A stretch of DNA of 64,000 nucleotides from an uncultured bacterium (GTDB taxonomy: Bacteria > Babelota > Babeliae > Babelales > Vermiphilaceae): the NCBI GenBank assembly GCA_963702025.1, contig OY969699.1:800001-864000 (forward strand). Direction: 5' to 3'. The translations under genes were made by a program, and so were the position numbers. Each line of letters begins with the position of its first letter. The stretch's first letter is position 1. The notes under the pieces were generated by a model, which made no database searches, was not told the DNA's origin, and saw nothing but the letters and a program-made list of their open reading frames with translations. Below, piece after piece: positions 11,823 to 63,268 of this stretch.

Positions 11823-11894
<72 letters not shown>

Positions 11895-38825: not shown

Positions 38826-38908
38826 TGCCGAGAGCCGGACTCGAACCGGCACGGGCAAAACCCGAAGGATTTTAAGTCCTTTGCGTCTACCAATTCCGCC
38901 ATCCCGGC
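38823..38908 (-). tRNA. tRNA-Leu(TAA)
   Basis: GCCGGGATGGCGGAATTGGTAGACGCAAAGGACTTAAAATCC...GGTTCGAGTCCGGCTCTCGGCACCA, long variable arm. Confidence 0.97.
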
Positions 38909-39171: not shown

Positions 39172-39242
39172 AGGCGGCACCCGGACTCGAACCGGGGATC
39201 AAGGTTTTGCAGACCCATGCCTTACCACTTGGCTATGCCGCC
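39169..39242 (-). tRNA. tRNA-Cys(GCA)
   Basis: GGCGGCATAGCCAAGTGGTAAGGCATGGGTCTGCAAAACC...GGTTCGAGTCCGGGTGCCGCCTCCA. Confidence 0.97.
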
Positions 39243-50748: not shown

Positions 50749-52197
50749 ATGTCTTTAAACTTTACGGATACCATGAATATAAATACCCCAATTCGCGTTC
50801 GCTTTGCCCCATCGCCCACCGGCCTCATGCACTTGGGCAACGTGCGCACCGCCTTAATGAACTATCTTTTTGCCCAACAAAAAAAAGGCACTTTTATCAT
50901 TCGTATAGAAGATACTGATACCCAGCGCAACTATGATCCGCAAGCCACCAAAATTATTGCTGATTTAACGTGGCTCGGTCTTGATTATCAAGAAGGGCCC
51001 ATCAAAGGTGGCCCATATGCCCCCTACTTTCAAACGCAACGCACTGAAATTTACCAAGAATATATTAAAAAATTGGAAGATAAAAAATTAGTATATCGTT
51101 GTTTCTGCACTCCGGAAGAGCTGGAAAAAAGGCGTCAACGGCAATTAGCGCTTAAGCTCCCGCCACGCTATGATCGCACCTGCCTCAAACTTACACCCGA
51201 GGAAATTGAGCAACTGCTCAAAGAGAAAAAACCATTTATCCTCCGTGTCCAACTTGATCAATCCGGATCAATTAGTATTCATGATTTGGCACATGGCACC
51301 ATCACCTTTGAATTTAAAAATTTCTCCGATTTTCCCATTACCCGGGCTGATGGTTCTGTTACCTTTATTTTTGCCAATTTTGTTGATGACTTGGTGATGA
51401 AAATTACTCATGTGATCCGTGGTGAGGATCATCTGACCAACACTGCCAACCAAGCGGCACTCTATGAAATTTTTAATGCACCGATTCCAACCTTTTGGCA
51501 CTTGCCCATTTTGTGCAATGCCGAAGGTAAAAAATTATCCAAGCGTGACTTTGGCTTTTCATTAACCGATTTAATGGATGCGGGTTACTTGCATGAGGCA
51601 ATTGATAATTATCTGGCAATAATCGGCGGCGGTGTTTTTGAACAAGAAATTATGAATTTGAATGAGTTGGCACAAAAATTAAATTTTGATCATATACATT
51701 CAACCGGCCATGTCCGCTATGATGTGGAAAAATTACGCTGGCTCAACCATAAATGGATAGCAAAACTTTCGCCACAAGATTTAATGGAACGGTGCTTACC
51801 TTTCTTGGTCAAATCCTACCCGCAGGCCGAGAAACTAAGCCGCGATACATTGATAACACTTATTCAAGCCATTAAAACTGATTTGCAGACACTTGCTGAT
51901 ATCAGCACCGCATTATCATTTATTTTCCATGCACCGGTTATTGATAAATCAATTCTCACGCCGGAACATATTGCCGTTGCAACCATAGTAAAAAATCATC
52001 TTGATCAGATTGCCAAGCCGGAAGAATTTGTTGCTACACTCAAACAAGAAGCAAAAAAACAAAATATTCCCCTCAGCCAACTATTCTGGTTTTTGCGTAT
52101 GGCATTGATTGGCAAAGAACATGGTCCGGCAATTCATGAATTGATTGCAATGCTGGGGGCTCAAGAAGCACGAGCCCGAATTGAGAAATTATTATAA
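50749..52197 (+). CDS. gltX: Glutamate--tRNA ligase
   Basis: RFAPSPTG.MHLGN, RIEDTD, KLSKR. Confidence 0.96.
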   Translation: MSLNFTDTMNINTPIRVRFAPSPTGLMHLGNVRTALMNYLFAQQKKGTFIIRIEDTDTQRNYDPQATKIIADLTWLGLDYQEGPIKGGPYAPYFQTQRTEIYQEYIKKLEDKKLVYRCFCTPEELEKRRQRQLALKLPPRYDRTCLKLTPEEIEQLLKEKKPFILRVQLDQSGSISIHDLAHGTITFEFKNFSDFPITRADGSVTFIFANFVDDLVMKITHVIRGEDHLTNTANQAALYEIFNAPIPTFWHLPILCNAEGKKLSKRDFGFSLTDLMDAGYLHEAIDNYLAIIGGGVFEQEIMNLNELAQKLNFDHIHSTGHVRYDVEKLRWLNHKWIAKLSPQDLMERCLPFLVKSYPQAEKLSRDTLITLIQAIKTDLQTLADISTALSFIFHAPVIDKSILTPEHIAVATIVKNHLDQIAKPEEFVATLKQEAKKQNIPLSQLFWFLRMALIGKEHGPAIHELIAMLGAQEARARIEKLL

Positions 52198-52233
52198 TAA
52201 CGCGAACTCGAGCTAAAAACTTGGGACACAAAT

Positions 52234-53463
52234 CTGAAGTTCGGACATAAATAGAAGAGACTCCTGTTCTGGTGTATTTTTAAAAAAAACAAAGAAACAC
52301 CAAAAACAGGAGAATCATGATTGCCAAAAAAGATATCATAAAAATGATTAATTCGCTAAAAGTATTTAACATTCATGTTGCCGACTTCATCGGATCGATG
52401 ATTTGGGGGTTCCAACAAGCAAAAAAGCTTAGAATTTCCAGCATTTCTGCTGCATCACCCGGCAAGTATGAATCTAACTATAAAAACATCACAAGATCTC
52501 TAAATAAATTAGAAGTTTCTCAGCTTTCAGAAGCTCTTTTGTCATTTCAGGACCAAGCGAGTGATATCCTATTGCTCGATTTTACTGAGATGACTCGAAA
52601 AAATGCTAAACGCACTGCTTATATTGGATATTTAAAAGATGGAGAAACACTTGGCTACAGCATATTGGCACTGAGTGTACCATTCAAAGGAAGATCTAAA
52701 ATAATATTTGCTGATGTAATATCTTCTTCAATCATTGCTGAGAGCGCAACTGGAAAGTGGAAGCTTATTCAAGAAGCTTTACGCCCATTAATTCCTTTGC
52801 TTCAGAGTAAGATAATTGTCATTGATCGTGAACTTTGCAATGAGGAGATGATCAAGTTCTTTCATAAACATCAAATTCATTATTCAATACGCTTAAAAAT
52901 AAGTGCTGGAAAAAACCAAATTATTATTACTGACAAAAAAGGCAGCAGGATTAACATTTCTATTACTCGCGGCTCAAAGAAAAATTGGAAAGGGGTTTAT
53001 TATAAAGGGAAAATCAAAGTAAATATTGCTGCTGAATGGCAAAGCAATATGCCTGAGCCAATGTATATAATTACAGATTGTCAGCCAAGTGAAGGTTTAA
53101 AATACTATAAAAAACGCATGAAAATAGAGGAAAGTTTCAAAGATATAAAAGATAAATTGGGCTTTACAAAAATCATGAATAAAACTTTAGGCAATCTCCT
53201 TAAAATGCTCCTCATTGGATTAATTGCCTACAATCTATTGATTTTGATAGGCGAAATGCTGCGATTACAAGTGCTCACGAAGCGCGAAAGGCTTAAGTTC
53301 AGCGGTTTGCATTTATTGCTTAATATGATTTATTCATATTCTCGATCCAAACTTCGGAAAGCACTACGTCAAGTTGAATTCCATCTGCTTGAAAATAATT
53401 CAGATGATGTTGTTTGGTTAAGAGCCTTTAGGAATTGTTAAAATGAAATTGTCCGAACTTAAG
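52234..53463 (+). mobile_element. Complete IS4-family insertion sequence (1230 bp)
   Basis: TIRs ctgaagttcggaca / tgtccgaacttaag; 8-bp TSD ACACAAAT at 52226-52233 and 53464-53471. Confidence 0.9.
52317..53441 (+). CDS. IS4-family DDE transposase
   Basis: LLDFT, VIDRE, YKKRMKIEESFKDIK (YREK). Confidence 0.9.
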   Translation: MIAKKDIIKMINSLKVFNIHVADFIGSMIWGFQQAKKLRISSISAASPGKYESNYKNITRSLNKLEVSQLSEALLSFQDQASDILLLDFTEMTRKNAKRTAYIGYLKDGETLGYSILALSVPFKGRSKIIFADVISSSIIAESATGKWKLIQEALRPLIPLLQSKIIVIDRELCNEEMIKFFHKHQIHYSIRLKISAGKNQIIITDKKGSRINISITRGSKKNWKGVYYKGKIKVNIAAEWQSNMPEPMYIITDCQPSEGLKYYKKRMKIEESFKDIKDKLGFTKIMNKTLGNLLKMLLIGLIAYNLLILIGEMLRLQVLTKRERLKFSGLHLLLNMIYSYSRSKLRKALRQVEFHLLENNSDDVVWLRAFRNC

Positions 53464-53475
53464 ACACAAATTGGA

Positions 53476-54207
53476 TTAGGCCACAATCTCTTGTCTAAGC
53501 TCTTCTGGCAGTAATTTTATTTGTTCAGCACTAAGTTTATCTTCATTAAAAATAATATATTTAATACAGAGTTTTTTAAGTGAAGGAACCCTTTGAAATC
53601 CATTCGGGCCATGAGCCACTTTGCCACCAACCATTGCCAACATTCCTAATCTATATAACTGATAGTTACAGCGCGGAGAACAATACGGAACTTTTAAAAA
53701 TTTCTCTACCAGTAACGCCAAAGTATCTTCAAAGGTAGTATTATTAGCATTATTCCCCAATTGTTTGCAAACCAATTCTAGATTACATTTATGCTTGGTA
53801 TGAAAAAGTTTAACAATGGAATCTTCTTTTTTATCTTTAACTACCGAATACGGTAAAAGTAATGGAACATAGTTGAAAAAAGGACCTGCTTTTTTTGGAT
53901 CTGTACTTTTGGCTCTCACCCTTACAAATGGATCTGAACGATCAAAAGTTAATAGCAGATCACAAGAATTTTTCATGTCACATAAACTACACATAACGTC
54001 CTCTCTGGTACCACATTGATAAAGCAAATAGTCATCCACTATGCTCAACTCTCCTTTAATGGTTGGATATGCAGTCGCTTCCATGTCCGCATTTTCTTGC
54101 AAATATTCAACAGGAGGCTGTGTATCCACATCAGGAATATTTGGCAGCATTGGCACTATTGCTGGAAAATATGCGGCAAACAAGAATACAAATACTATTT
54201 TCTTCAT
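53476..54207 (-). CDS. Secreted protein: unnamed domain + SOCS/BC-box-like tail
   Basis: Signal peptide; VPSLKKLCIKYI...IKLLPEELRQEI. Confidence 0.8.
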   Translation of the reverse strand: MKKIVFVFLFAAYFPAIVPMLPNIPDVDTQPPVEYLQENADMEATAYPTIKGELSIVDDYLLYQCGTREDVMCSLCDMKNSCDLLLTFDRSDPFVRVRAKSTDPKKAGPFFNYVPLLLPYSVVKDKKEDSIVKLFHTKHKCNLELVCKQLGNNANNTTFEDTLALLVEKFLKVPYCSPRCNYQLYRLGMLAMVGGKVAHGPNGFQRVPSLKKLCIKYIIFNEDKLSAEQIKLLPEELRQEIVA

Positions 54208-54222
54208 GACAATCTTCTTTTA

Positions 54223-55605
54223 TTACCACAACTTATAACTATATTTAGTTGGAAAATCTGTTTTAATATTATCGCTTCCACCATTACTCGGTGTAAGTAC
54301 GCGAACATGGTAGGGATTTTGATTGGCAGCATTTTCCAAATTTGTTTTTATTTCTTTTTCCAAAAATGCAAAAATTCGCTCAGTAAGATATCCAGTTATT
54401 AATCCTAGACGAATTAAATATTCAAAGTTATTTTTCAAAAATTTAACTGTGGCTGCATAAGATTTGTTCCCAAAGTATTCTTTGATAGTCACTGCACACA
54501 TACCTGCACAGGCTCCAAAGAGACAAAGCAAAAGTCGTTCCTTCTTGATACCCTTAAATGCGACTATATTACTTTTTGCCGCAAATGATTTGAGCCAAAA
54601 TAACATTTTTGCCAAAGAGGTTTGTTTGAAGATGATATTTTGGGGATTTAAAGGAGTATGGGCAGCATTCAGCAAAAGTTTTTTATATTGTGCCGGATTA
54701 TCAAGACAAACAGAAGCAAGAGGATTATTAGGTAGAGATATACGCTCAATATCTTCATCAATTTCTTTATTTGAAACTGACTCAATACCATTTTTACTTA
54801 AATAAATTGATTTCGAATGGGGAAAAACTTTTTTTAGTGCTTTCACACTAAATGTTTTGATAGGCTCATCAAAAATGTTTATTTGTTCAATCTGATCAAG
54901 AGGTAAAGATTGTCCAAACTCCTTAAGAACCTCTATTCCCTCTAACGATCTAATTTTTTTTGTAATTTTCAATGCTTTAGAAATCCTGGACAAAAAGAAA
55001 ATATTATAGTTATAGTTGTTTATAACCGAATCACCGAGAAAATTCTTCTTAAAAATTTCGAGCCAGTTTTCTTTTCCTTTTACATCAGCCATAAATTGAG
55101 TAAAATCCAGATAATAGGGCAAATTAATTGCAATCGTATCTTTTAATAAGCGTAAATCACTTAATCTCTGCAATTGCTCAATCTTTTGATTCTGTTCTTT
55201 TATTGCTTCAATCTCTTTTTCTAATGCCGTTACATTTTTTTGAACCGATGGGTATGCGCGATTGGCCAGAGCTTCACTGATATTTTCCGGCGCTTGCAAA
55301 AAGTCTGCCAATTCAAATAATTGAGTAAAAAGAGCCTCATTTTTTATTTGATCCAGATATTTTATATCATTGATGACCTTAATTAGCTCAGCAATATTTG
55401 ATGCTGTCATAAAAGCATTCGGCTTAAAACTGATTCTTTCACCGGCAGCAGCCTGTGGCTTGCAATGCTTTATAAAGTCGCAACATTTCAATGCTTCCTC
55501 TTGTTGTTCGGTAAGCTCAACGCTCGGTATTTCCATTGGATATGACATTGAGCAGTATGAAATCAAAAAAGATGCAAGTGCTATTTTTTTTATTACTTTT
55601 TTCAT
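54223..55605 (-). CDS. Secreted protein: BTB/Skp1-like + coiled coil + LRR + hydrophobic segment
   Basis: GGAGG SD; LFELADFLQAP; IYLSKNGI, ISLPNNPL. Confidence 0.8.
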   Translation of the reverse strand: MKKVIKKIALASFLISYCSMSYPMEIPSVELTEQQEEALKCCDFIKHCKPQAAAGERISFKPNAFMTASNIAELIKVINDIKYLDQIKNEALFTQLFELADFLQAPENISEALANRAYPSVQKNVTALEKEIEAIKEQNQKIEQLQRLSDLRLLKDTIAINLPYYLDFTQFMADVKGKENWLEIFKKNFLGDSVINNYNYNIFFLSRISKALKITKKIRSLEGIEVLKEFGQSLPLDQIEQINIFDEPIKTFSVKALKKVFPHSKSIYLSKNGIESVSNKEIDEDIERISLPNNPLASVCLDNPAQYKKLLLNAAHTPLNPQNIIFKQTSLAKMLFWLKSFAAKSNIVAFKGIKKERLLLCLFGACAGMCAVTIKEYFGNKSYAATVKFLKNNFEYLIRLGLITGYLTERIFAFLEKEIKTNLENAANQNPYHVRVLTPSNGGSDNIKTDFPTKYSYKLW

Positions 55606-55790
55606 GATAACCTCCAAATTATTTTATTATATTTATGGTTTTTGTTCATCTTTTGTCGATGGTTCAATCTGTTCTCGTAATTCTTCCGGCAACAATTTTA
55701 TTTGTGCTCGCTGCTCTGCGGTTAATTTGTCTTTATTAAACAGAATATATTTAATGCATGTATCTTTGAGTGAACCGGGAACTTTACCAA
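55424..55790. repeat. Direct repeat copy 1 spanning gene 3' end, spacer and next gene 5' end
   Basis: Near-identical to 56582-56948 (offset 1158). Confidence 0.9.
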
Positions 55791-56763
55791 AGCCGTAGGG
55801 GCCATGGACATAGAGCAGAGATTCTTTATCAAATGCCATAACCTTCAAAGCCTGTAATTTTTTCTCGCAATCTGAAGAATATCTTTGCGGATTTTTTAAA
55901 AATTCTTGTTTTAGTCTTTCAAGCGCATTTTCAAATGTTTCACTCGTATGCGCTTCGTCAAAGCTCGCTTGTTGACACGTAAGTTCTATTATACTCTGCT
56001 TCTGCAAATTAAAAATTCTCACCATATCATTTTCTTTTTTATCAGCAAGTAGGCAATAGGGCAAAAATAGTGGGAAATACCCCACTTTGGGGTGATGAAG
56101 GGTCATCCAGTCATCCGATTCAGGACTGCGCACAACTACTTGCACTAAAGGATCTGCCGGATTGCACGGTAACAAAAGATCATGGCGCTGCTTTAAATCA
56201 AAAAAACATTCGCCACACTGATATTGCAATTGCTTGGCAGTTATCTTAAGTGAACCTTTCACCGAGGGCAATGTATTTGCAGTGGTATCTTGCAAGTTTA
56301 ATAAATCAGCTAATTGCTCTGCTGTTTGTTTTTTTTCACTGTCAGTATTTGTTAATTCTTTCTCTAATTCTTTTATTCTCTCTTGCACAACGGGGCAAAT
56401 GCGTTCGGCAAGCGCTACTAAAATGCATTCTGGCGCGCACAAGAAGTTTGCCAATCGAAATAACTCGATGCACTGAGTATTATCTACGATTCGAAGAAAA
56501 GCGTAAGTATCCAAATATTTAACATCTTGAATCACTTTAATGAGCTCTTCAATATTTTTTGCTGTCATGAAAGAATTCGCTTTAAAACTGATTCTTTCAC
56601 CAGCAGCAGCCTGCGGCTTGCAATGTTTTATAAAGTCGCAACATTTCAATGCTTCCTCTTGCTGTTCAGTAAGCTCAACGCTGGGTATTTCCATGGGATA
56701 TGACATTGAGCAGTATGAAATCAAAAAAGATGCAAGTGCTATTTTTTTTATTACTTTTTTCAT
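55633..56763 (-). CDS. Secreted chimeric protein: BTB/Skp1-like + unnamed domain + SOCS/BC-box-like tail
   Basis: N-terminus identical to the 54223 gene for ~60 aa; LFRLANFLCAP; GSLKDTCIKYI...LLPEELREQI. Confidence 0.8.
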   Translation of the reverse strand: MKKVIKKIALASFLISYCSMSYPMEIPSVELTEQQEEALKCCDFIKHCKPQAAAGERISFKANSFMTAKNIEELIKVIQDVKYLDTYAFLRIVDNTQCIELFRLANFLCAPECILVALAERICPVVQERIKELEKELTNTDSEKKQTAEQLADLLNLQDTTANTLPSVKGSLKITAKQLQYQCGECFFDLKQRHDLLLPCNPADPLVQVVVRSPESDDWMTLHHPKVGYFPLFLPYCLLADKKENDMVRIFNLQKQSIIELTCQQASFDEAHTSETFENALERLKQEFLKNPQRYSSDCEKKLQALKVMAFDKESLLYVHGPYGFGKVPGSLKDTCIKYILFNKDKLTAEQRAQIKLLPEELREQIEPSTKDEQKP

Positions 56764-56948
56764 GATAACCTCCAAATTATTTTATTATATTTATGGTTTT
56801 TGTTCATCTTTTGTCGATGGTTCAACCTGTTCTCGTAATTCTTCCGGCAACAATTTTATTTGTTCACATTGTGCCGCACTTAATTTATGTTTATTAAAGA
56901 AAATATATTTAATGCACGTATCTTTGAGCGAATTGGGAACTTTACCAA
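56582..56948. repeat. Direct repeat copy 2
   Basis: Matches 55424-55790; partial third copy at ~57592-57775. Confidence 0.9.
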
Positions 56949-57582
56949 ATCCATATATACCGTGCGCAAAAACAAAAGGATTTGTATCTACAATAGCCTC
57001 TTTAGCAGATTCTCTTTTTGCCACAATTTTTAATTTTTCCAAGGCTTTTTCGCAGGTGAACCGGGGATATGCAAATCGTAAAAAATGTTGTTTCATCGTC
57101 TCCAATCTCACCTCAAAAATAGGGTTTGTTAATGGTTGGTCATCGAAGGTGGAAGGAGATGGGATCATAAAACTGCTCGCCTTACATACTAACTCTAATA
57201 CACTATTAGTTTTGCTATCAAAAAGCCTAATAAGATCATTCTCTTTTTTGTTTGCAAGTAATGAATAAGGTAATTTGACTTGAAAAAATCCATTTAAATC
57301 GTGACTCAATCTAAATTCTAAGCTAACAAGAGGATCATCATTCTGCTTAAAAGACACATGATATCGGGAACTGTTTTTTTCATCAGTTTCACACAAACCA
57401 CATTGATATTCGATGCAATCATCAAGATACAACTCCCCTTTCACTACTGGATCGATGAGAGTTTGATTTTCCTTTTTTTCTGAAGTGGCACCATTATTAA
57501 GCTCAGGTTTTTCCATAGCAAAAGTGCTGCTAAAAGATACCGATAAGCCAAGTGCAAGTAACGTAGTATTTAATTTATTCAT
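56791..57582 (-). CDS. Secreted protein: unnamed domain + SOCS/BC-box-like tail
   Basis: TFA|MEK; NSLKDTCIKYI...LLPEELREQV. Confidence 0.8.
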   Translation of the reverse strand: MNKLNTTLLALGLSVSFSSTFAMEKPELNNGATSEKKENQTLIDPVVKGELYLDDCIEYQCGLCETDEKNSSRYHVSFKQNDDPLVSLEFRLSHDLNGFFQVKLPYSLLANKKENDLIRLFDSKTNSVLELVCKASSFMIPSPSTFDDQPLTNPIFEVRLETMKQHFLRFAYPRFTCEKALEKLKIVAKRESAKEAIVDTNPFVFAHGIYGFGKVPNSLKDTCIKYIFFNKHKLSAAQCEQIKLLPEELREQVEPSTKDEQKP

Positions 57583-57608
57583 AAAGCCTCAAAATTATTT
57601 TATTATAT

Positions 57609-58352
57609 TTATGTTTTTTGTTCATCTTTTGCCAATGGTTCAATCTGTTCTCTAAGCTCTTCCGGCAATAATTTTATTTGTGCTCGCTGCTCTGCAGTTA
57701 ATTTGTCTTTATTTAAGAAAATATATTTAATGCATGCATCTTTGAGTGAACTGGGGACTTTACCAAATCCATATGGACCGTGGCTTATTGATGTACCTTC
57801 TTGTGCTAAAATCTTTAATTTTAACAACAACTCCCCTTGGCACCAAGCGCCTAATTTTGCTCTATTTAAAAATTCTTGTTTTTTAATTTTTAAGCATTCT
57901 TCAAATGATTGCCAATTATGCCAATTATTATTACCACTGCAAACCAATTCAAAACAACAGTTCTCCTTATCATTAAAGAATCGAACAATATCATTTTGTT
58001 TTTTATCTGCGAGCAAAGAATAAGGCAAATACCGGGGAATTCCATTGTCCGTTCCAACAATACATTTTGTTATAGGTACAACTGGATCATGCGGCTGGTA
58101 TAACAACGAATAATTAGAGGTTAAATTTTTCTCATCCCATCGGCATTTGCCACATTCATAAATAATACTGTCTTGAAGACAAATACGCAGCTCCCCTTCT
58201 ATAATCTTCGGTCCAACTGCTATTAATACTGCTTCTTTCATATCTTGTGTTTTTGAAATTGCAGTTTTTGCCTCAGGCAGTTCCATAGCACCTATAGTTG
58301 CCAAAGTTCCCAACAAGCTCATCGCCAAAGACATTTTATTTAATCTATTCAT
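57609..58352 (-). CDS. Secreted protein: unnamed domain + SOCS/BC-box-like tail
   Basis: IGA|MEL; SSLKDACIKYI...LLPEELREQI. Confidence 0.8.
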   Translation of the reverse strand: MNRLNKMSLAMSLLGTLATIGAMELPEAKTAISKTQDMKEAVLIAVGPKIIEGELRICLQDSIIYECGKCRWDEKNLTSNYSLLYQPHDPVVPITKCIVGTDNGIPRYLPYSLLADKKQNDIVRFFNDKENCCFELVCSGNNNWHNWQSFEECLKIKKQEFLNRAKLGAWCQGELLLKLKILAQEGTSISHGPYGFGKVPSSLKDACIKYIFLNKDKLTAEQRAQIKLLPEELREQIEPLAKDEQKT

Positions 58353-58535
58353 CAACTCCCCAAAAGGGTAAAATTCGTTTTTTGAGAAATAACTACTTTT
58401 TAATACTATCAGGAATTAGTTAATAGTCAATATTTTCTATTTGTAACTTTTTAGGAGTGTTTCAGGTTACAAATCCATTAACCTGGAGGTGTTGCTCTCG
58501 AAAAAATTAATATTATTAACTTAAGCATTTTATAG

Positions 58536-59041
58536 CCCCTGCGCGGCGAGCGATAAACCTGGAGGTGTTCTCGAAAACACCTCCAGACCTCCATTCGCCC
58601 AAGGAGGGCCTTGGGAATCCCTGTGCGATAAACTCACCAACACATCTCCCTTCGGGAGCTGCGTCGGTTCATACATATATCGCAATCAGATCTAACGTTT
58701 TATACATTAACTATACGTAGAGAGCCCGCAACGATGCTTGCCGGGCGCGAAAGCGCCCGAGCGGGCTCTGTTATTTTTTCTCTTTAACGTAGACGCGCTA
58801 ACTCAGAAGTTTTAAGAATGCTTCGACACGCTCAGCCCGAACGGTTTAAAAACTTTAATAAGTAAATTCAGACAAGTGCCACTGAGTGATTGGAGCGCGC
58901 AGCGCGAGGTCGCGAATTGGCACGAAATGAGGGATCCTAAGGCGCAGCCTTGGTCTGGGGATTCCAAAGGGTGTTCAGATTTAACACCCTTTGGCCACCG
59001 CCCGGAGGGCGATTAATAATAATATTCCTGCCGCCGCAGGC
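58536..59041. repeat. GC-rich multi-hairpin non-coding element
   Basis: ctggaggtgtt/aacacctccag, cccaagg/ccttggg, agagcccgc/gcgggctct, gtgcca/tggcac, ccaaagggtgtt/aacaccctttgg and others. Confidence 0.75.
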
Positions 59042-59130
59042 AAATATAAAAATTCTTAATGGCATTGGTCTCATTTGTATCAATAAAAGTAAATAGCTAA
59101 GCTTGAATTAGCATTAAATGAAAGGGCACA

Positions 59131-59334: not shown

Positions 59335-60642
59335 TCATATCTCAATCGTCAACAATTCCTGCCAACTCGTGGTAAAACGAGCCGATCTTTTCTCAACTTT
59401 CGTTTTCCAGGGATGATCAACGCCCGTTGCGGCAAAGGTCACCGTTTCATTGCCCCATTTGGTAGTAATATGATCCATGGTGGTCATCATGCGAGCTTGT
59501 TTGCTAATATCCTTATCCATCTGGCTCATAGTGAGCTGCAGATTGTCCGCATCAGTAATATCATTGAGCATAATGCCCACTTTTTTATAGATAAGGCCCT
59601 TTTTAAATACAATATCAATGCATGCTTTAACGGCACTAATTATTGCGGGCGTATATGATGTGGCTTGCGGCAATTGTATGCTGGCACTTTTATAATAGCG
59701 CTGAGGATCATCGTAACTTCTAACCAATACAAAAGCAGATACATGCGAGGCTACAAGTTTTTGTTTGCGTAATTTGCGCGCACCGCTGGTTGCATGCACC
59801 GATGCCGCTTGCTTTAAATGAGTGATATTTGTTATCGGTTTGCCAAATGAGCGGGAGACCACAAAGCTTTTATTCGGCTCAATTTCTTGATCGATGGCAA
59901 AACAGGGAATGCCGCGCAATTCGTGCACCATTCGTAACCCATTAATGGTCATCTTTTTGCGTGCCCACGCGTCAGGGGCATATTTAAGGGCCTTTGCCGT
60001 GGTTATCTTATGGGCAATTAACATTTTTTCATAACGGCGACCAACGCCCCAAATATCGCCGACAGGAACTTTTTCAAGCAGTTCATCAACGTCAGCACGA
60101 TCGGTGATGTCAAAATAACCACCCAATGTCGGATTTTTCTTTGCAATTTTATTGGCAACTTTAGCAAGTGTTTTGGTTGGTGCAATGCCAATAGAAATAG
60201 GAATACCCGTATACTGTTTAACTTTACGAATTAATAATTGAGAGCGCGCGGCGAAATAATCGGGATCTTGCTCGTGACCATAATCAACAATATGTAAAAA
60301 TGCTTCATCAACCGAATAGACTTCAATATCAGCAGCCTCTTGAGCAAGCGTTTGCATGACGCGGGAAGACATATCGCCGTAGAGTGAAAAATTGGATGAA
60401 AAAACATGCACCTTATGTTTTTTAAAAAACGGCTCATATTGAAAGGCCGGTGCGCCCATGGGAATTTCTAATGCCTTGGCTTCATTAGAACGCGCGATAA
60501 CACAGCCATCGTTACTGGAAAGCACCACAACCGGCTTGCCAATCAATGTTGGATCAAATACGCGTTCACACGAAACAAAAAAATTATTGCAATCAACCAG
60601 CAATATTCGTTTAGGTTTGCCGGATAATATAGGTGACGACAC
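59335..60642 (-). CDS. umuC: Y-family DNA polymerase V subunit UmuC
   Basis: VDCNNFFVSCERVF, LSSNDGC, YSVDEAFL, DVWGVG-like, C-terminal RFTTSWQEL; GTG start overlapping umuD. Confidence 0.93.
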   Translation of the reverse strand: MSSPILSGKPKRILLVDCNNFFVSCERVFDPTLIGKPVVVLSSNDGCVIARSNEAKALEIPMGAPAFQYEPFFKKHKVHVFSSNFSLYGDMSSRVMQTLAQEAADIEVYSVDEAFLHIVDYGHEQDPDYFAARSQLLIRKVKQYTGIPISIGIAPTKTLAKVANKIAKKNPTLGGYFDITDRADVDELLEKVPVGDIWGVGRRYEKMLIAHKITTAKALKYAPDAWARKKMTINGLRMVHELRGIPCFAIDQEIEPNKSFVVSRSFGKPITNITHLKQAASVHATSGARKLRKQKLVASHVSAFVLVRSYDDPQRYYKSASIQLPQATSYTPAIISAVKACIDIVFKKGLIYKKVGIMLNDITDADNLQLTMSQMDKDISKQARMMTTMDHITTKWGNETVTFAATGVDHPWKTKVEKRSARFTTSWQELLTIEI

Positions 60643-60988
60643 CCCACACCTCAAAATCTCTATCAGCAGTAATGGTTAAGGGTTCATTATTCTTTCCATC
60701 TCCCAATAAGATTAACGCATCGGGCGCAATCTGTACACGCCGCACCAACAATTGGCCATCCAAACGGGCAATAATAATTGTATGATTAGAAAGAGAAAGT
60801 GAGCGATCAACCACCAAAATATCGTTGGACCAAATCCCTTCATCGAGCATTGTATCGCCCTTCACGCGCACAAAAAAAGTGGCTGCCGGATGTTGGATAA
60901 TCAGTTCATTTAAATCAAGCGAGAGAGAAAAATCATTTTCGGCCCAGGAATGGAAACGGGTAGATACGGAAATTTTTTTGTTATTCAT
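60611..60988 (-). CDS. umuD: UmuD-like S24 protein, catalytically degenerate
   Basis: LDLNELIIQHPAATFFVRVKGDTM, LVVDRSL, EVWGVVTYII. Confidence 0.85.
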   Translation of the reverse strand: MNNKKISVSTRFHSWAENDFSLSLDLNELIIQHPAATFFVRVKGDTMLDEGIWSNDILVVDRSLSLSNHTIIIARLDGQLLVRRVQIAPDALILLGDGKNNEPLTITADRDFEVWGVVTYIIRQT

Positions 60989-61144: not shown

Positions 61145-62472
61145 CAATACTCCGGACAGTTTTAACATCTAATCATCCCGAATTTAATTGCACTTTTTAA
61201 CCCTGGATCGAATTTTATTAAATTCGGGTCCAATCCTAACTTTGAAATAATCTGTTTTGTGAGCATTTCATTGTAGTTTTTGCGCTTATGACTTGCCATG
61301 GAAAAAGGAACTTTTTCCGGCAAGCTTTTCTTGGCTTCAACCTCCTGAACCTTGGCTATTGTAAGAGCGGAAAAAGAGGCATTAAAGTGATGATTGAGCT
61401 TTTCTTTGCTGCGCGCTTGAGATTCGGTAAGTCCTGTAAATTGTTTCGCATCACGAAAAACAAACTCAATTTGAAAACGTGCCTTGTAAAAGTCATAAAT
61501 ATCACGCGCGCTTAACGAAAAATCTGTTGAAAAAAGAAGACAAATAGATTCTTTGTTTTTAACACATACAACTCGAACCGTTCGCTTAAGACTTATGCTG
61601 TAATAATCAGCAAAATACAATGAAATGTGTTCATCAATTTTATCTGAAAAATTAAAATTGCTGAGATCTTTTACATCAACTTTCTTTCCGTACTTTCTTG
61701 GCCTTCCGCGACCTCTATTTTGCTCAAAAACTAAATATCGTAAATTAGCATCAGATCGCAATCGACTTATTACATGATAATTATCAGATCTCATCGCCGA
61801 TACAAATTGTTCTTTTGCAAAATAAGCATCACAAACTAAAAACTTTATATCAAATTTTTCTTTGATTTTGGGAAGCTGCCCTTGAAGGCTATGAATATAA
61901 AAATTGATTCGAGTTGCATCAGATTTGCCAATTATTTGAACAATTTCATCTTTTGGTGGTGTTTGCTGAACAGAAAGCGGATATCCAATATTTTCGTCAA
62001 CATCGATTAATGCTAGCCCGCTTGCCTCTAATCCTTTTTCAGATTTGCTTTGTGAACCATTCCAGAATGATTCTCTACCGTAAGTTTTTTTGCCTGATTT
62101 TTCTATGAAAAATGGATCAAATGCCAAGATCAGTCGCTTTTCTTGAATGATTATTCTTTTCACCGCAATGAGGTTGAATTGAAGATAATCAAAGCATTTA
62201 GCAAAGTTTCGAGAAAAAGTTTTTTCGCTCATATCAGCATATCTAGCCATGTTGGCAAAATTTACGCGACCAGCCATCGAAAGTATCGTGCTCATCAGGT
62301 CATTTACAAACTTTTTTTGAGGTTTCGAAATTTTTGTCATTTTTTCCAAAATTTCCTGTATAATTTTCATTGCCGCATTTCCCTTTTTTGAGGAAGTTTG
62401 ATTGACTCCCACTAATTATGGATATGCGGCCTAAACTTTCAAGTCACTTTCAAAAAACTGTCCGAACTATTG
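61145..62472 (-). mobile_element. Complete insertion sequence, IS4/IS701-like (1328 bp)
   Basis: TIRs caatactccggacagttt / aaactgtccgaactattg; 7-bp TSD ACAGGAG at 61138-61144 and 62473-62479. Confidence 0.9.
61162..62370 (-). CDS. DDE transposase (IS4/IS701-like)
   Basis: AFDPFFIEKSGKKT, CDAYF, RGRPRKYG, YKARFQIEFVFRDAKQ. Confidence 0.9.
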   Translation of the reverse strand: MKIIQEILEKMTKISKPQKKFVNDLMSTILSMAGRVNFANMARYADMSEKTFSRNFAKCFDYLQFNLIAVKRIIIQEKRLILAFDPFFIEKSGKKTYGRESFWNGSQSKSEKGLEASGLALIDVDENIGYPLSVQQTPPKDEIVQIIGKSDATRINFYIHSLQGQLPKIKEKFDIKFLVCDAYFAKEQFVSAMRSDNYHVISRLRSDANLRYLVFEQNRGRGRPRKYGKKVDVKDLSNFNFSDKIDEHISLYFADYYSISLKRTVRVVCVKNKESICLLFSTDFSLSARDIYDFYKARFQIEFVFRDAKQFTGLTESQARSKEKLNHHFNASFSALTIAKVQEVEAKKSLPEKVPFSMASHKRKNYNEMLTKQIISKLGLDPNLIKFDPGLKSAIKFGMIRC

Positions 62473-62510
62473 ACAGGAGAATTTATCCGAAAACTATTAT
62501 AAGGACCCTT

Positions 62511-62810
62511 ATGTCACCCCAAATAAATCCTGATGACAAAAAAGAAGTTATTCATGCAGTGGAATACCATTATCCCGATGCAAAAATAATTCTGTTTGGA
62601 TCACGTGCCCATGGAAAAGCAAAAGAGGGTTCCGATATTGATATTGCAATTGATATCGGCGAACCTATCCCGTTGCATGAAATGTCGCGTATACGAACTA
62701 CAATGGAAAACTTAACAATACCATTAATGGTGGATGTCGTTGATATGCAACGCATACCCGAAGAATTCAAGCAGATAATTTTGAAACATGGTATTGTATG
62801 GAAAAATTAA
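62511..62810 (+). CDS. Minimal nucleotidyltransferase (MntA-type antitoxin)
   Basis: LFGSRAHG...SDIDIAI (GSx10DxD), VDVVD. Confidence 0.9.
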   Translation: MSPQINPDDKKEVIHAVEYHYPDAKIILFGSRAHGKAKEGSDIDIAIDIGEPIPLHEMSRIRTTMENLTIPLMVDVVDMQRIPEEFKQIILKHGIVWKN

Positions 62811-63268
62811 AAATATCACTCCATTCTCTCAATAAAGCATTAAAAACCTTAGATTCTTCGCTTATCACATTACAAAAAGCAAAAGATTTAAAAATTGAAG
62901 AATTTATCTTGGCAAGTCAAGATTCAGTTATTCAAAGGTTCGAATATTGCTATGAAGGATTTTGGAAATTTTTAAAACAATATTTAGAAAAAACACACAA
63001 CATAGAAACTGAAGAAATAAAAAGTCCCAAAAAAGTTTTTCGCTACGGTGTTAAAATAAGAATTTGCTCTGAACAAGAAGGGAAAATACTTATCCAAATG
63101 TCAAATTCTCGTAATGCAACTTCTCACACCTATAGCCTCGAAGAAGTGCATGCAATCTTACCCAATATTCCTCTCTATCACGAATGCATGTTAAAGATAC
63201 GTGATCGTATTATAACAGCCATTAGGCACACCCAGACATGTGATGAAATTCATAACTTATTAAACTAG
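62798..63268 (+). CDS. HEPN/HI0074-family toxin (HepT-type)
   Basis: IQRFEYCYE, SPKKVFR, RNATSHTY (Rx4HxY); overlaps MNT stop. Confidence 0.9.
   Translation: MEKLKISLHSLNKALKTLDSSLITLQKAKDLKIEEFILASQDSVIQRFEYCYEGFWKFLKQYLEKTHNIETEEIKSPKKVFRYGVKIRICSEQEGKILIQMSNSRNATSHTYSLEEVHAILPNIPLYHECMLKIRDRIITAIRHTQTCDEIHNLLN

Follow-up and report, generated by a model that had tools for sequence, protein, structure and literature searches.

A tandem array of leader-bearing Babelota proteins with credible BC-box/Cul2-box-like tails, one instance of a module found across the genome and the phylum

In the VHL-box receptors of the Cul2-type cullin-RING ubiquitin ligases (CRL2), namely KLHDC2, KLHDC10, APPBP2, PRAME and FEM1, a BC-box is followed by a cullin-box in a three-helix tail, and this terminal box lies beside a binding domain (PMC4878042, PMC10591846; what is said of these and later papers refers to the parts of their text that were available). 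The published consensus is (S,T,P)LxxxC/S/AxxxΦ for the BC-box and ΦPxxΦxxxΦ for the Cul2-box (PMC4878042, PMC6918085), whereas the Cul5-box is defined by LPΦP (PMC4812663, PMC6918085). SOCS-box proteins (ASB, WSB, SOCS) likewise end in a BC-box plus cullin-box unit of about 40 residues (PMC4812663). Parasites encode BC-boxes as well, as in MGF505 of African swine fever virus, Vif of human immunodeficiency virus, E4orf6 of adenovirus and BZLF1 of Epstein-Barr virus (PMC13342108, PMC4812663), MGF505 forming a multigene family of paralogs whose box is conserved while their bodies diverge (PMC13342108). Among bacteria, a Babela F-box protein is a cullin-RING ligase (CRL) adaptor mimic of an intracellular species, fused to repeat domains (PMC4378268), and putative BC and cullin boxes in Listeria InlC (PMC6918085) and SOCS-box annotations in Endozoicomonas (PMC9743535) are earlier suggestions of the BC/SOCS type. 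Here we analyse a window of 64,000 nucleotides (positions 800,001 to 864,000 of contig OY969699.1, assembly GCA_963702025.1) from an uncultured bacterium that likely belongs to Candidatus Dependentiae (Babelota), and in it an array of five genes, four of which encode proteins with a tail that credibly mimics such a box. Cultured Dependentiae live as obligate parasites in amoebae or flagellates and encode many signal-peptide and predicted ubiquitin-system proteins (PMC4378268, PMC6561590), including the F-box, RING and deubiquitinase proteins of Babela (PMC4378268). Neither 'SOCS' nor 'BTB' is mentioned in the available text of the Babela paper (PMC4378268), nor 'BTB' in that of the Chromulinavorax paper.

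The five array genes (Table 1) all lie on the minus strand, 15 to 29 nt apart, and are numbered here in the order of transcription. Each protein starts with a basic-hydrophobic leader, judged by visual inspection and by a crude rule on hydropathy, in agreement with the preliminary description of this DNA, which had reported five co-oriented signal-peptide genes. A Pfam scan of the five proteins gave no family over cut-off. Alignment also bears out the C-terminal tails that had been noticed, SLKxxCIKYI-x(11-14)-IKLLPEELRxx(I/V), in four of the five (genes 1, 2, 3 and 5). What had been overlooked is a domain of about 150 residues, the core, which is common to these four proteins and makes up most of their length. 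Pairwise identity among them is 69 to 86% for the tails and 36 to 44% for the cores. By this alignment the four tailed genes are paralogs built on one cargo domain, so that the proposed mix-and-match effector kit has to be given up. Nor is the array a self-contained system: it occupies a slot whose gene content varies, and its box recurs on 25 genes elsewhere in the genome.

All four tails match the BC-box consensus and, downstream of it, the Cul2-box consensus, and none contains the LPΦP of the Cul5/SOCS type; the SOCS/BC-box mimic put forward earlier therefore remains credible as far as the BC-box is concerned, with a cullin-box of the Cul2 rather than the Cul5 kind. Counted with the published consensus, which is independent of this genome (1.596 Mb, 39% GC, a single contig), BC-box and Cul2-box are found together within the final 55 residues in 10 of its 1526 open reading frames (ORFs), where 20 shuffles gave 0.55 (maximum 2). 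Without regard to position the count is 31, compared with 10 (maximum 14) in the shuffles. In the model of gene 3 core and tail (predicted local distance difference test, pLDDT, 92; predicted template-modelling score, pTM, 0.84), the tail forms three short helices. When 992 chains were re-aligned to this model, only two reached Z >= 2. Each is a CRL2 receptor and superimposes on the tail: APPBP2 residues 9-88 (Z 3.0, root-mean-square deviation (rmsd) 3.0, 45 residues) and KLHDC2 residues 360-405 (Z 2.0, rmsd 5.9, 45 residues). A structural search of 48,161 chains gave APPBP2, ASB9 256-293 and ZSWIM8 72-110 at Z 2.4 to 3.0. Since all four tails fit the consensus, since the family to which they belong includes a match to Pfam SOCS_box (see below), and since the structural matches, though weak, point to CRL2-receptor boxes, we consider the tail a credible mimic of a BC-box and cullin-box of the Cul2/VHL-box type. 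It probably binds Elongin C.

The phylum-wide surveys of box, core and POZ covered 261 genomes (about 0.7 to 2.4 Mb among those listed). An iterated box profile, seeded with 16 hand-picked motif matches from this genome, found 29 ORFs at an independent E value below 1e-4, 25 of them outside the array. The box lies in the C-terminal half of 13 and in the N-terminal half of 16, and thus behaves as a portable module. As a guard against circularity the profile was rebuilt without the array, using 21 other boxes; it recovered the four array tails at independent E values of 3e-6 to 3e-4, the best match in the reversed proteome being at 0.19. A profile made from the four array tails alone recovered no other box significantly (best 0.2). 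Among 25 aligned boxes, the BC consensus is matched by 19, the Cul2 consensus by 23, both by 18, and LPΦP by a single member, C1:1365008, in which ankyrin repeats follow the box. This member matches positions 1-38 of the 39 of Pfam SOCS_box at 24.5 bits (cut-off 23.5), and at 20.5 bits, below cut-off, when scanned as a whole protein. Nearly all members have an invariant Leu and an S/P-L-x3-C/A/S-x3-Φ helix upstream of LPxEL. The crude signal-peptide rule was passed by 26 of 27 box ORFs, compared with 840 of 1499 others, and six of the 24 box proteins scanned contain ankyrin repeats. The profile matched 28 of the 261 phylum genomes (E <= 0.01), with 25 matches in this genome and 1 to 5 in others, a contrast inflated by the origin of the profile in this genome; of 38 matches inspected in other genomes, 14 have both consensus motifs and most lie directly behind a leader. 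The array is a single case of a module that recurs across the genome and the phylum. The Elongin_A family had no match in this genome.

Examples of box loci are C1:429263-431832, 462358-466101, 714108-728242, 1264961-1267218 and 1364930-1365889. The partners of the box are ankyrin, WD40-like or uncharacterised domains, and tandem triplets are frequent. Within the window, positions 1049-1897 encode a leader-bearing protein of 282 aa with a sub-threshold BC-box-like helix at residue 87 and no cullin-box.

Set against the described systems, the array proteins have the order of motifs, a tail modelled as three helices and the terminal box of the VHL-box receptors, but they are bacterial, carry signal peptides, have an uncharacterised partner domain, and their binding is predicted from sequence. 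The likeness to SOCS-box proteins extends to family members elsewhere in the genome that combine the box and ankyrin repeats, one of them matching Pfam SOCS_box; the difference is that the Cul5 motif is missing from all four array tails and from 24 of the 25 family members. Viral mimics act in animals, whereas here we deal with a bacterium that has likely protist hosts and with proteins that have a Sec leader. For InlC and Endozoicomonas the evidence consists of a single motif match or a Pfam annotation, and the available text of those papers describes no expanded phylum-wide family. The mechanism predicted for the array tails thus resembles that of VHL-box receptors and viral mimics, falls outside the SOCS-box type, and is not classifiable as BTB. 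The Anks of Orientia are reportedly exported F-box/PRANC adaptor mimics of CRLs fused to repeat domains; such bacterial effectors use Skp1-Cul1, whereas the array tail fits the Elongin C type.

A search with the core profile against 1.84 billion representative sequences returned 66 proteins at E <= 0.001, including those of the window and one repeat protein, P0038, which was rejected as a false match. Most relatives consist of a leader and a core with an HGPNG motif at its end, and have no tail, which indicates that the core works without one. The relatives P0050, P0053, P0061 and P0069 (144-155 aa) are leaderless and stop before the His-Gly motif; no close kin was found for a signal-less core relative. 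A Pfam scan of the core relatives gave no family over cut-off for the core, searches of PHROGs, PDB sequences and the ESM Atlas gave no match, and pattern scans of the named genomes and IMG/VR found no relatives. The core is present in 28 of the 261 phylum genomes, or about 24 without leader-only matches, frequently in tandem copies; four weak genome matches (L032-L035) were discounted because the leader alone was covered. None of the loci inspected outside this genome joins the core to the box. In a quick tree of 77 rows, which were gathered using tailed queries, the eight tailed cores cluster (SH-aLRT 82). One protein of a public collection, P0064 (245 aa), lies on a separate branch and combines the core with an F-box-like module at its N terminus (a sub-threshold match, E 5.7e-4) in place of a C-terminal box.

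The preliminary description had proposed a structure search of each module. The core+tail model had no match in the PDB (Foldseek; VIA-align gave nothing at Z >= 8, and its matches were confined to the coiled linker or the tail), which is not proof of a new fold. It did match the predicted models of two giant-virus ORFans, Tupanvirus A0A6N1NIC4 (E 5.9e-7, rmsd 2.8, 123 columns, 19% identity) and Satyrvirus A0A3G5AEI5 (E 5.8e-3), uncharacterised entries that were compared as whole models. For the N-terminal module of genes 3 and 4, only a weak profile alignment by hhalign was obtained. Rows suggesting a SUMO-E1 ubiquitin fold for the core were rejected (probability 0.06-0.14, rmsd about 12), as was an FKBP/GreA-like motif, which neither sequence nor structure searches supported. 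Five polar residues of the core are conserved (P0003 numbering): His320 (94%), Tyr181 (87%), Gln265 (83%), Cys263 (75%) and His224 (67%).

On balance, and with some reserve, we favour the reading that the four tailed proteins are secreted, Elongin-C-recruiting substrate receptors, with the core as the likely substrate binder. It starts from what is observed, namely the gene anatomy, the tail consensus, the pairing of a conserved tail with a variable core, and the presence of one tag on 29 genes beside ankyrin or other domains. After Sec export the proteins would pass into the host cytosol, where the Leu and Cys of SLxxxCxxxI would enter the groove of Elongin C and LPEELxxxI would contact the cullin. 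The fast-diverging core would bind a host protein, to be ubiquitylated on the cullin-RING ligase. Two large secretin genes lie 4 kb apart at C1:366024-371191 and are a candidate outer-membrane export route.

Several observations weigh against secreted substrate receptors of this type. Pfam SOCS_box (PF07525) is matched neither by the array proteins (E <= 1) nor by the isolated tails; it is matched by only one of the 25 box members, and exceeds its cut-off in only one of the 261 phylum genomes. A profile of the 25 boxes searched against PDB sequences retrieved designed coiled coils and a leucine-rich repeat (LRR) design, and no BC-box protein. The structural Z scores are only 2 to 3; APPBP2, ASB9 and ZSWIM8 score no better than helical chains unrelated to them, and Cyclin F, with its F-box, is listed too. 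The tail is present in only eight of the 77 core rows of the tree. A Sec leader alone is insufficient for reaching the host cytosol. Finally, Cul2/Cul5-elongin ligases are held to be animal-specific in PMC2785787, which also notes a yeast Cul3-elongin complex. In favour of the reading, the BC-box receptors KLHDC2 and KLHDC3 are reported in amoebozoans and in stramenopiles, alveolates and Rhizaria (PMC10591846), and two Dictyostelium papers (PMC3515798, PMC10539598) leave, in their available text, the cullin question unsettled.

Three other explanations are considered. The tail may bind Elongin C while the core is a self-acting enzyme or inhibitor, the tail serving to stabilise, localise or time the destruction of the effector, or to soak up Elongin C. 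The 69 tail-less rows among the 77 of the core tree would be expected if the core acts alone, the conserved polar residues could form a site, a similar fold is found in signal-less giant-virus ORFans, and 29 different carriers in one genome could serve as an Elongin sink. However, repeated independent fusion to ligase adaptors, in the BC-box clade and in the F-box-like P0064, is typical of substrate receptors, some core relatives stop before the His-Gly motif, and structure searches matched no enzyme fold. We therefore regard a core that acts by itself as unlikely, though it fares best among the alternatives.

A second scenario, that the tail is a truncated F-box/PRANC (a Skp1 binder) or a ubiquitin-binding motif (UBM) built on the common LPxEL helix, is improbable. 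A PRANC match occurs in one box member (E 0.0054, and 0.015 in a second scan), the tail of P0001 matches UBM at E 0.24, the best UBM E value among the boxes is 0.02, and Cyclin F 28-70 is among the weak structural matches (Z 2.5), but the PRANC and UBM matches are all below cut-offs. The helix with its invariant Leu, upstream of LPxEL in nearly all members, is not required by F-boxes or UBMs. Moreover, the three-helix motif of F-box/PRANC domains, which starts at LPxEI and extends about 40 residues beyond it, was not found in the array proteins: they stop 6 to 14 residues past LPEEL, too short for F-box helices 2 and 3, and have no Pfam F-box match.

The third scenario, given below, involves the POZ fold, on which the findings come first. 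As reported before, LFxLAxFLxAP occurs near the N terminus of genes 3 and 4, whose first 61 residues are identical. That this module is BTB/Skp1-like can be kept only in a weakened form. None of its 19 homologs matches Pfam BTB or Skp1_POZ, nor do the array proteins, and a profile of the 12-member POZ family of this genome did not recover the array genes. The homologs, mostly of the same genus, show an I-x-D-x-x-G hairpin first and then the POZ order of elements; both array modules lack the first strand present in the homologs. With hhalign, the module aligned to the in-genome POZ family at 4.4% (E 0.009; its score of 20.0 exceeds all 30 column shuffles, maximum 16.5) and to Elongin C at 3.8%, collinear over 79 columns. 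The weak collinear alignment and the POZ order of elements suggest that the module is probably a decayed POZ despite the absent Pfam matches. A language-model search ranked a eukaryotic BTB+LRR cluster first, at 0.88, which we take as a lead only; PDB sequences gave nothing relevant. In the model of gene 3 the module is all-helical, at pLDDT 40-70, with only three aligned rows behind the prediction. The in-genome POZ family itself aligned to eukaryotic Elongin C with 97% probability (profile alignment). Skp1_POZ exceeded its cut-off three times in this genome, where F-box-like matches are also present, and in 45 of the 261 phylum genomes, compared with none of 14 controls.

The twelve POZ (Skp1/BTB) proteins bear leaders and include fusions to WD40, LRR-like or M48 peptidase domains (C1:399345-401363, 552436-555514, 685413-688589, 720644-730010, 748996-751562, 1446597-1447958). 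One of them, a protein of 1058 aa at C1:685413-688589 with POZ at residues 505-646, has a box-like stretch near its start that the box profile missed, and is a second possible two-module carrier.

That the tail never meets host Elongin C, and either binds a Skp1/Elongin-C-like POZ module made by the bacterium itself (in cis within gene 3, otherwise in trans) or has an export or folding role inside the bacterium, is the least probable scenario: the POZ family does align to Elongin C, POZ and box genes adjoin at several loci and gene 3 joins both, but the family was compared with Elongin C alone, so that the alignment shows no special likeness to it, the N-module is predicted with low confidence in the single-chain model of gene 3, the sister strain lacks the gene 3 fusion, and the presence of the tag on only 29 of several hundred leader-bearing ORFs means that it is no general export signal.

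Gene 4 has no tail. The LRRs ascribed to it are partly upheld: the protein contains one canonical unit, at residue 286, and LRR matches were obtained in all six syntenic relatives scanned (E <= 0.012, one over cut-off), but the repeats are degenerate, with no Pfam LRR match at E <= 1 on the protein itself and none in its two closest orthologs. It has a hydrophobic segment near residues 356-375. As the ancestral occupant of the slot, gene 4 encodes a protein with degenerate POZ-like and LRR parts, which may be an adaptor mimic of the Cul3/Cul1 type.

The slot, between a tRNA-ligase-like gene and umuDC-like genes, holds varying leader-bearing genes within the genus. Among seven genus genomes, three have N-module+LRR genes there and three have other genes, the contig of the last being too short; core or box was found in the slot in none of the seven. 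A sister strain, represented by contigs of three studies, is about 90% identical at the left flank, which runs directly into the end of the LRR gene, with neither the insertion sequence nor gene 5. Its array reads as three genes, to which copies collapsed between repeats could add: a tailed gene, an ortholog of gene 2 (94% identical) and an N-module+LRR gene, matched by the proteins P0008, P0078 and P0075. P0008 is an unfused leader-core-tail protein whose core is closest to that of gene 3 (50%), and the first 80 residues of P0075 are 98-100% identical to gene 3. For these two reasons gene 3, by sequence comparison, is a recent chimera at the strain level, absent from the sister strain. It would have arisen as an in-frame fusion by recombination between the junction repeats. 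In run X1 an identical contig spans the fusion junction (56134-56338), which argues against mis-assembly, although this run may be related to the source sample. Gene 3 had been suggested to bridge or poison two CRL types; for a chimera so young, missing in the sister strain, this idea is unsupported, and we prefer to count the gene as the fourth of the tailed paralogs, its N-module being a passenger. In low-depth contigs (depth 2-3) of runs X2 and X3, positions 55649-55886 are skipped, giving a gene 3 variant that would lack the tail as well as the last part of the core.

Table 1. Features of the array and its flanks (window positions)
Feature	Position	Strand	Description
Gene 1 (P0005, 247 aa)	57609-58352	-	Signal peptide, core (residues 52-196), BC/Cul2-box-like tail
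Gene 1 tail	57642-57749	-	BC-box + Cul2-box-like, residues 202-237
Gene 2 (P0004, 263 aa)	56791-57582	-	Signal peptide, core (residues 48-212), tail
Gene 2 tail	56824-56931	-	BC-box + Cul2-box-like, residues 218-253
Gene 3 (P0003, 376 aa)	55633-56763	-	Signal peptide, POZ-like module, helical linker, core (residues 169-325), tail
Gene 3 POZ-like module	56392-56694	-	Degenerate BTB/Skp1(POZ)-like, residues 24-124; first beta strand missing; weak basis
Gene 3 core	55789-56259	-	Modelled, pLDDT 92 with tail
Gene 3 tail	55666-55773	-	BC-box + Cul2-box-like, residues 331-366; three short helices in model
Gene 4 (P0002, 460 aa)	54223-55605	-	Signal peptide, POZ-like module (residues 24-122), degenerate LRRs (about residues 215-320); no tail
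Gene 5 (P0001, 243 aa)	53476-54207	-	Signal peptide, core (residues 51-204), tail
Gene 5 tail	53485-53583	-	Residues 209-241
Junction repeat, 197 nt	55611-55807		Tail, intergenic, start of next gene; copies 56769-56965 (87%), 57587-57783 (89%)
300-nt repeat	55351-55650		5' end of gene 4; copy 56509-56808 (92%, 5' end of gene 3); 1158-nt spacing as junction repeat
Insertion sequence	52231-53464	+	DDE transposase (52317-53441); closes array; 5 near-identical genome copies; outside system
Left flank	50749-52197	+	Presumably glutamate-tRNA ligase-like, from its motifs; conserved, synteny anchor
Right flank	59335-60988	-	Gene pair, presumably umuDC-like, from its motifs; conserved

Upstream of the array, positions 58382-59130 are non-coding and contain GC-rich repeated elements, possibly mobile or repeated palindromic ones, which recruit many short contigs from elsewhere. 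A different DDE insertion sequence lies at 61162-62412, with two identical and two diverged partial copies in the genome. It is followed at 62418-63268 by a nucleotidyltransferase-like and substrate-binding-like gene pair, which is presumably of the MNT/HEPN type and is present in some members of the genus and absent in others. Three tRNA genes (11823-11894, 38826-38908 and 39172-39242) are the only Rfam matches in the window.

The full-text literature that we searched, outside which lie most subscription journals and supplements such as the expanded-family tables of Babela, contains no description of a bacterial BC-box family of such size; within the same limits, nothing was found that links Dependentiae to the SOCS box, or the Elongin BC box to a secreted bacterial effector. 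F-box (Skp1) mimics are the documented means by which bacteria hijack cullin ligases; for the recruitment of Elongin C, most known cases are animal viruses. A wider proposal, which we put forward tentatively and doubt slightly more than we believe, is that Dependentiae possess a phylum-wide, undescribed class of Elongin-C-recruiting effectors of the VHL-box type, about 29 genes in this genome, that would reprogram a BC-box ligase of protists; the array would arm a new fold, shared with giant viruses of amoebae, that would have been joined in separate events to adaptors of the BC-box, F-box and POZ-like kinds, and in the boldest form of the proposal the bacterium would supply Elongin-C/Skp1-like adaptors of its own as well. 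The core is a confidently predicted domain that has no solved relative and is shared with amoeba giant viruses. If true, a BC-box family of this size in bacteria would be a new adaptor class among bacterial effectors, and would argue on genetic grounds for a BC-box ligase in protist hosts that repays attack; on this matter PMC2785787 and PMC10591846, in their available text, disagree.

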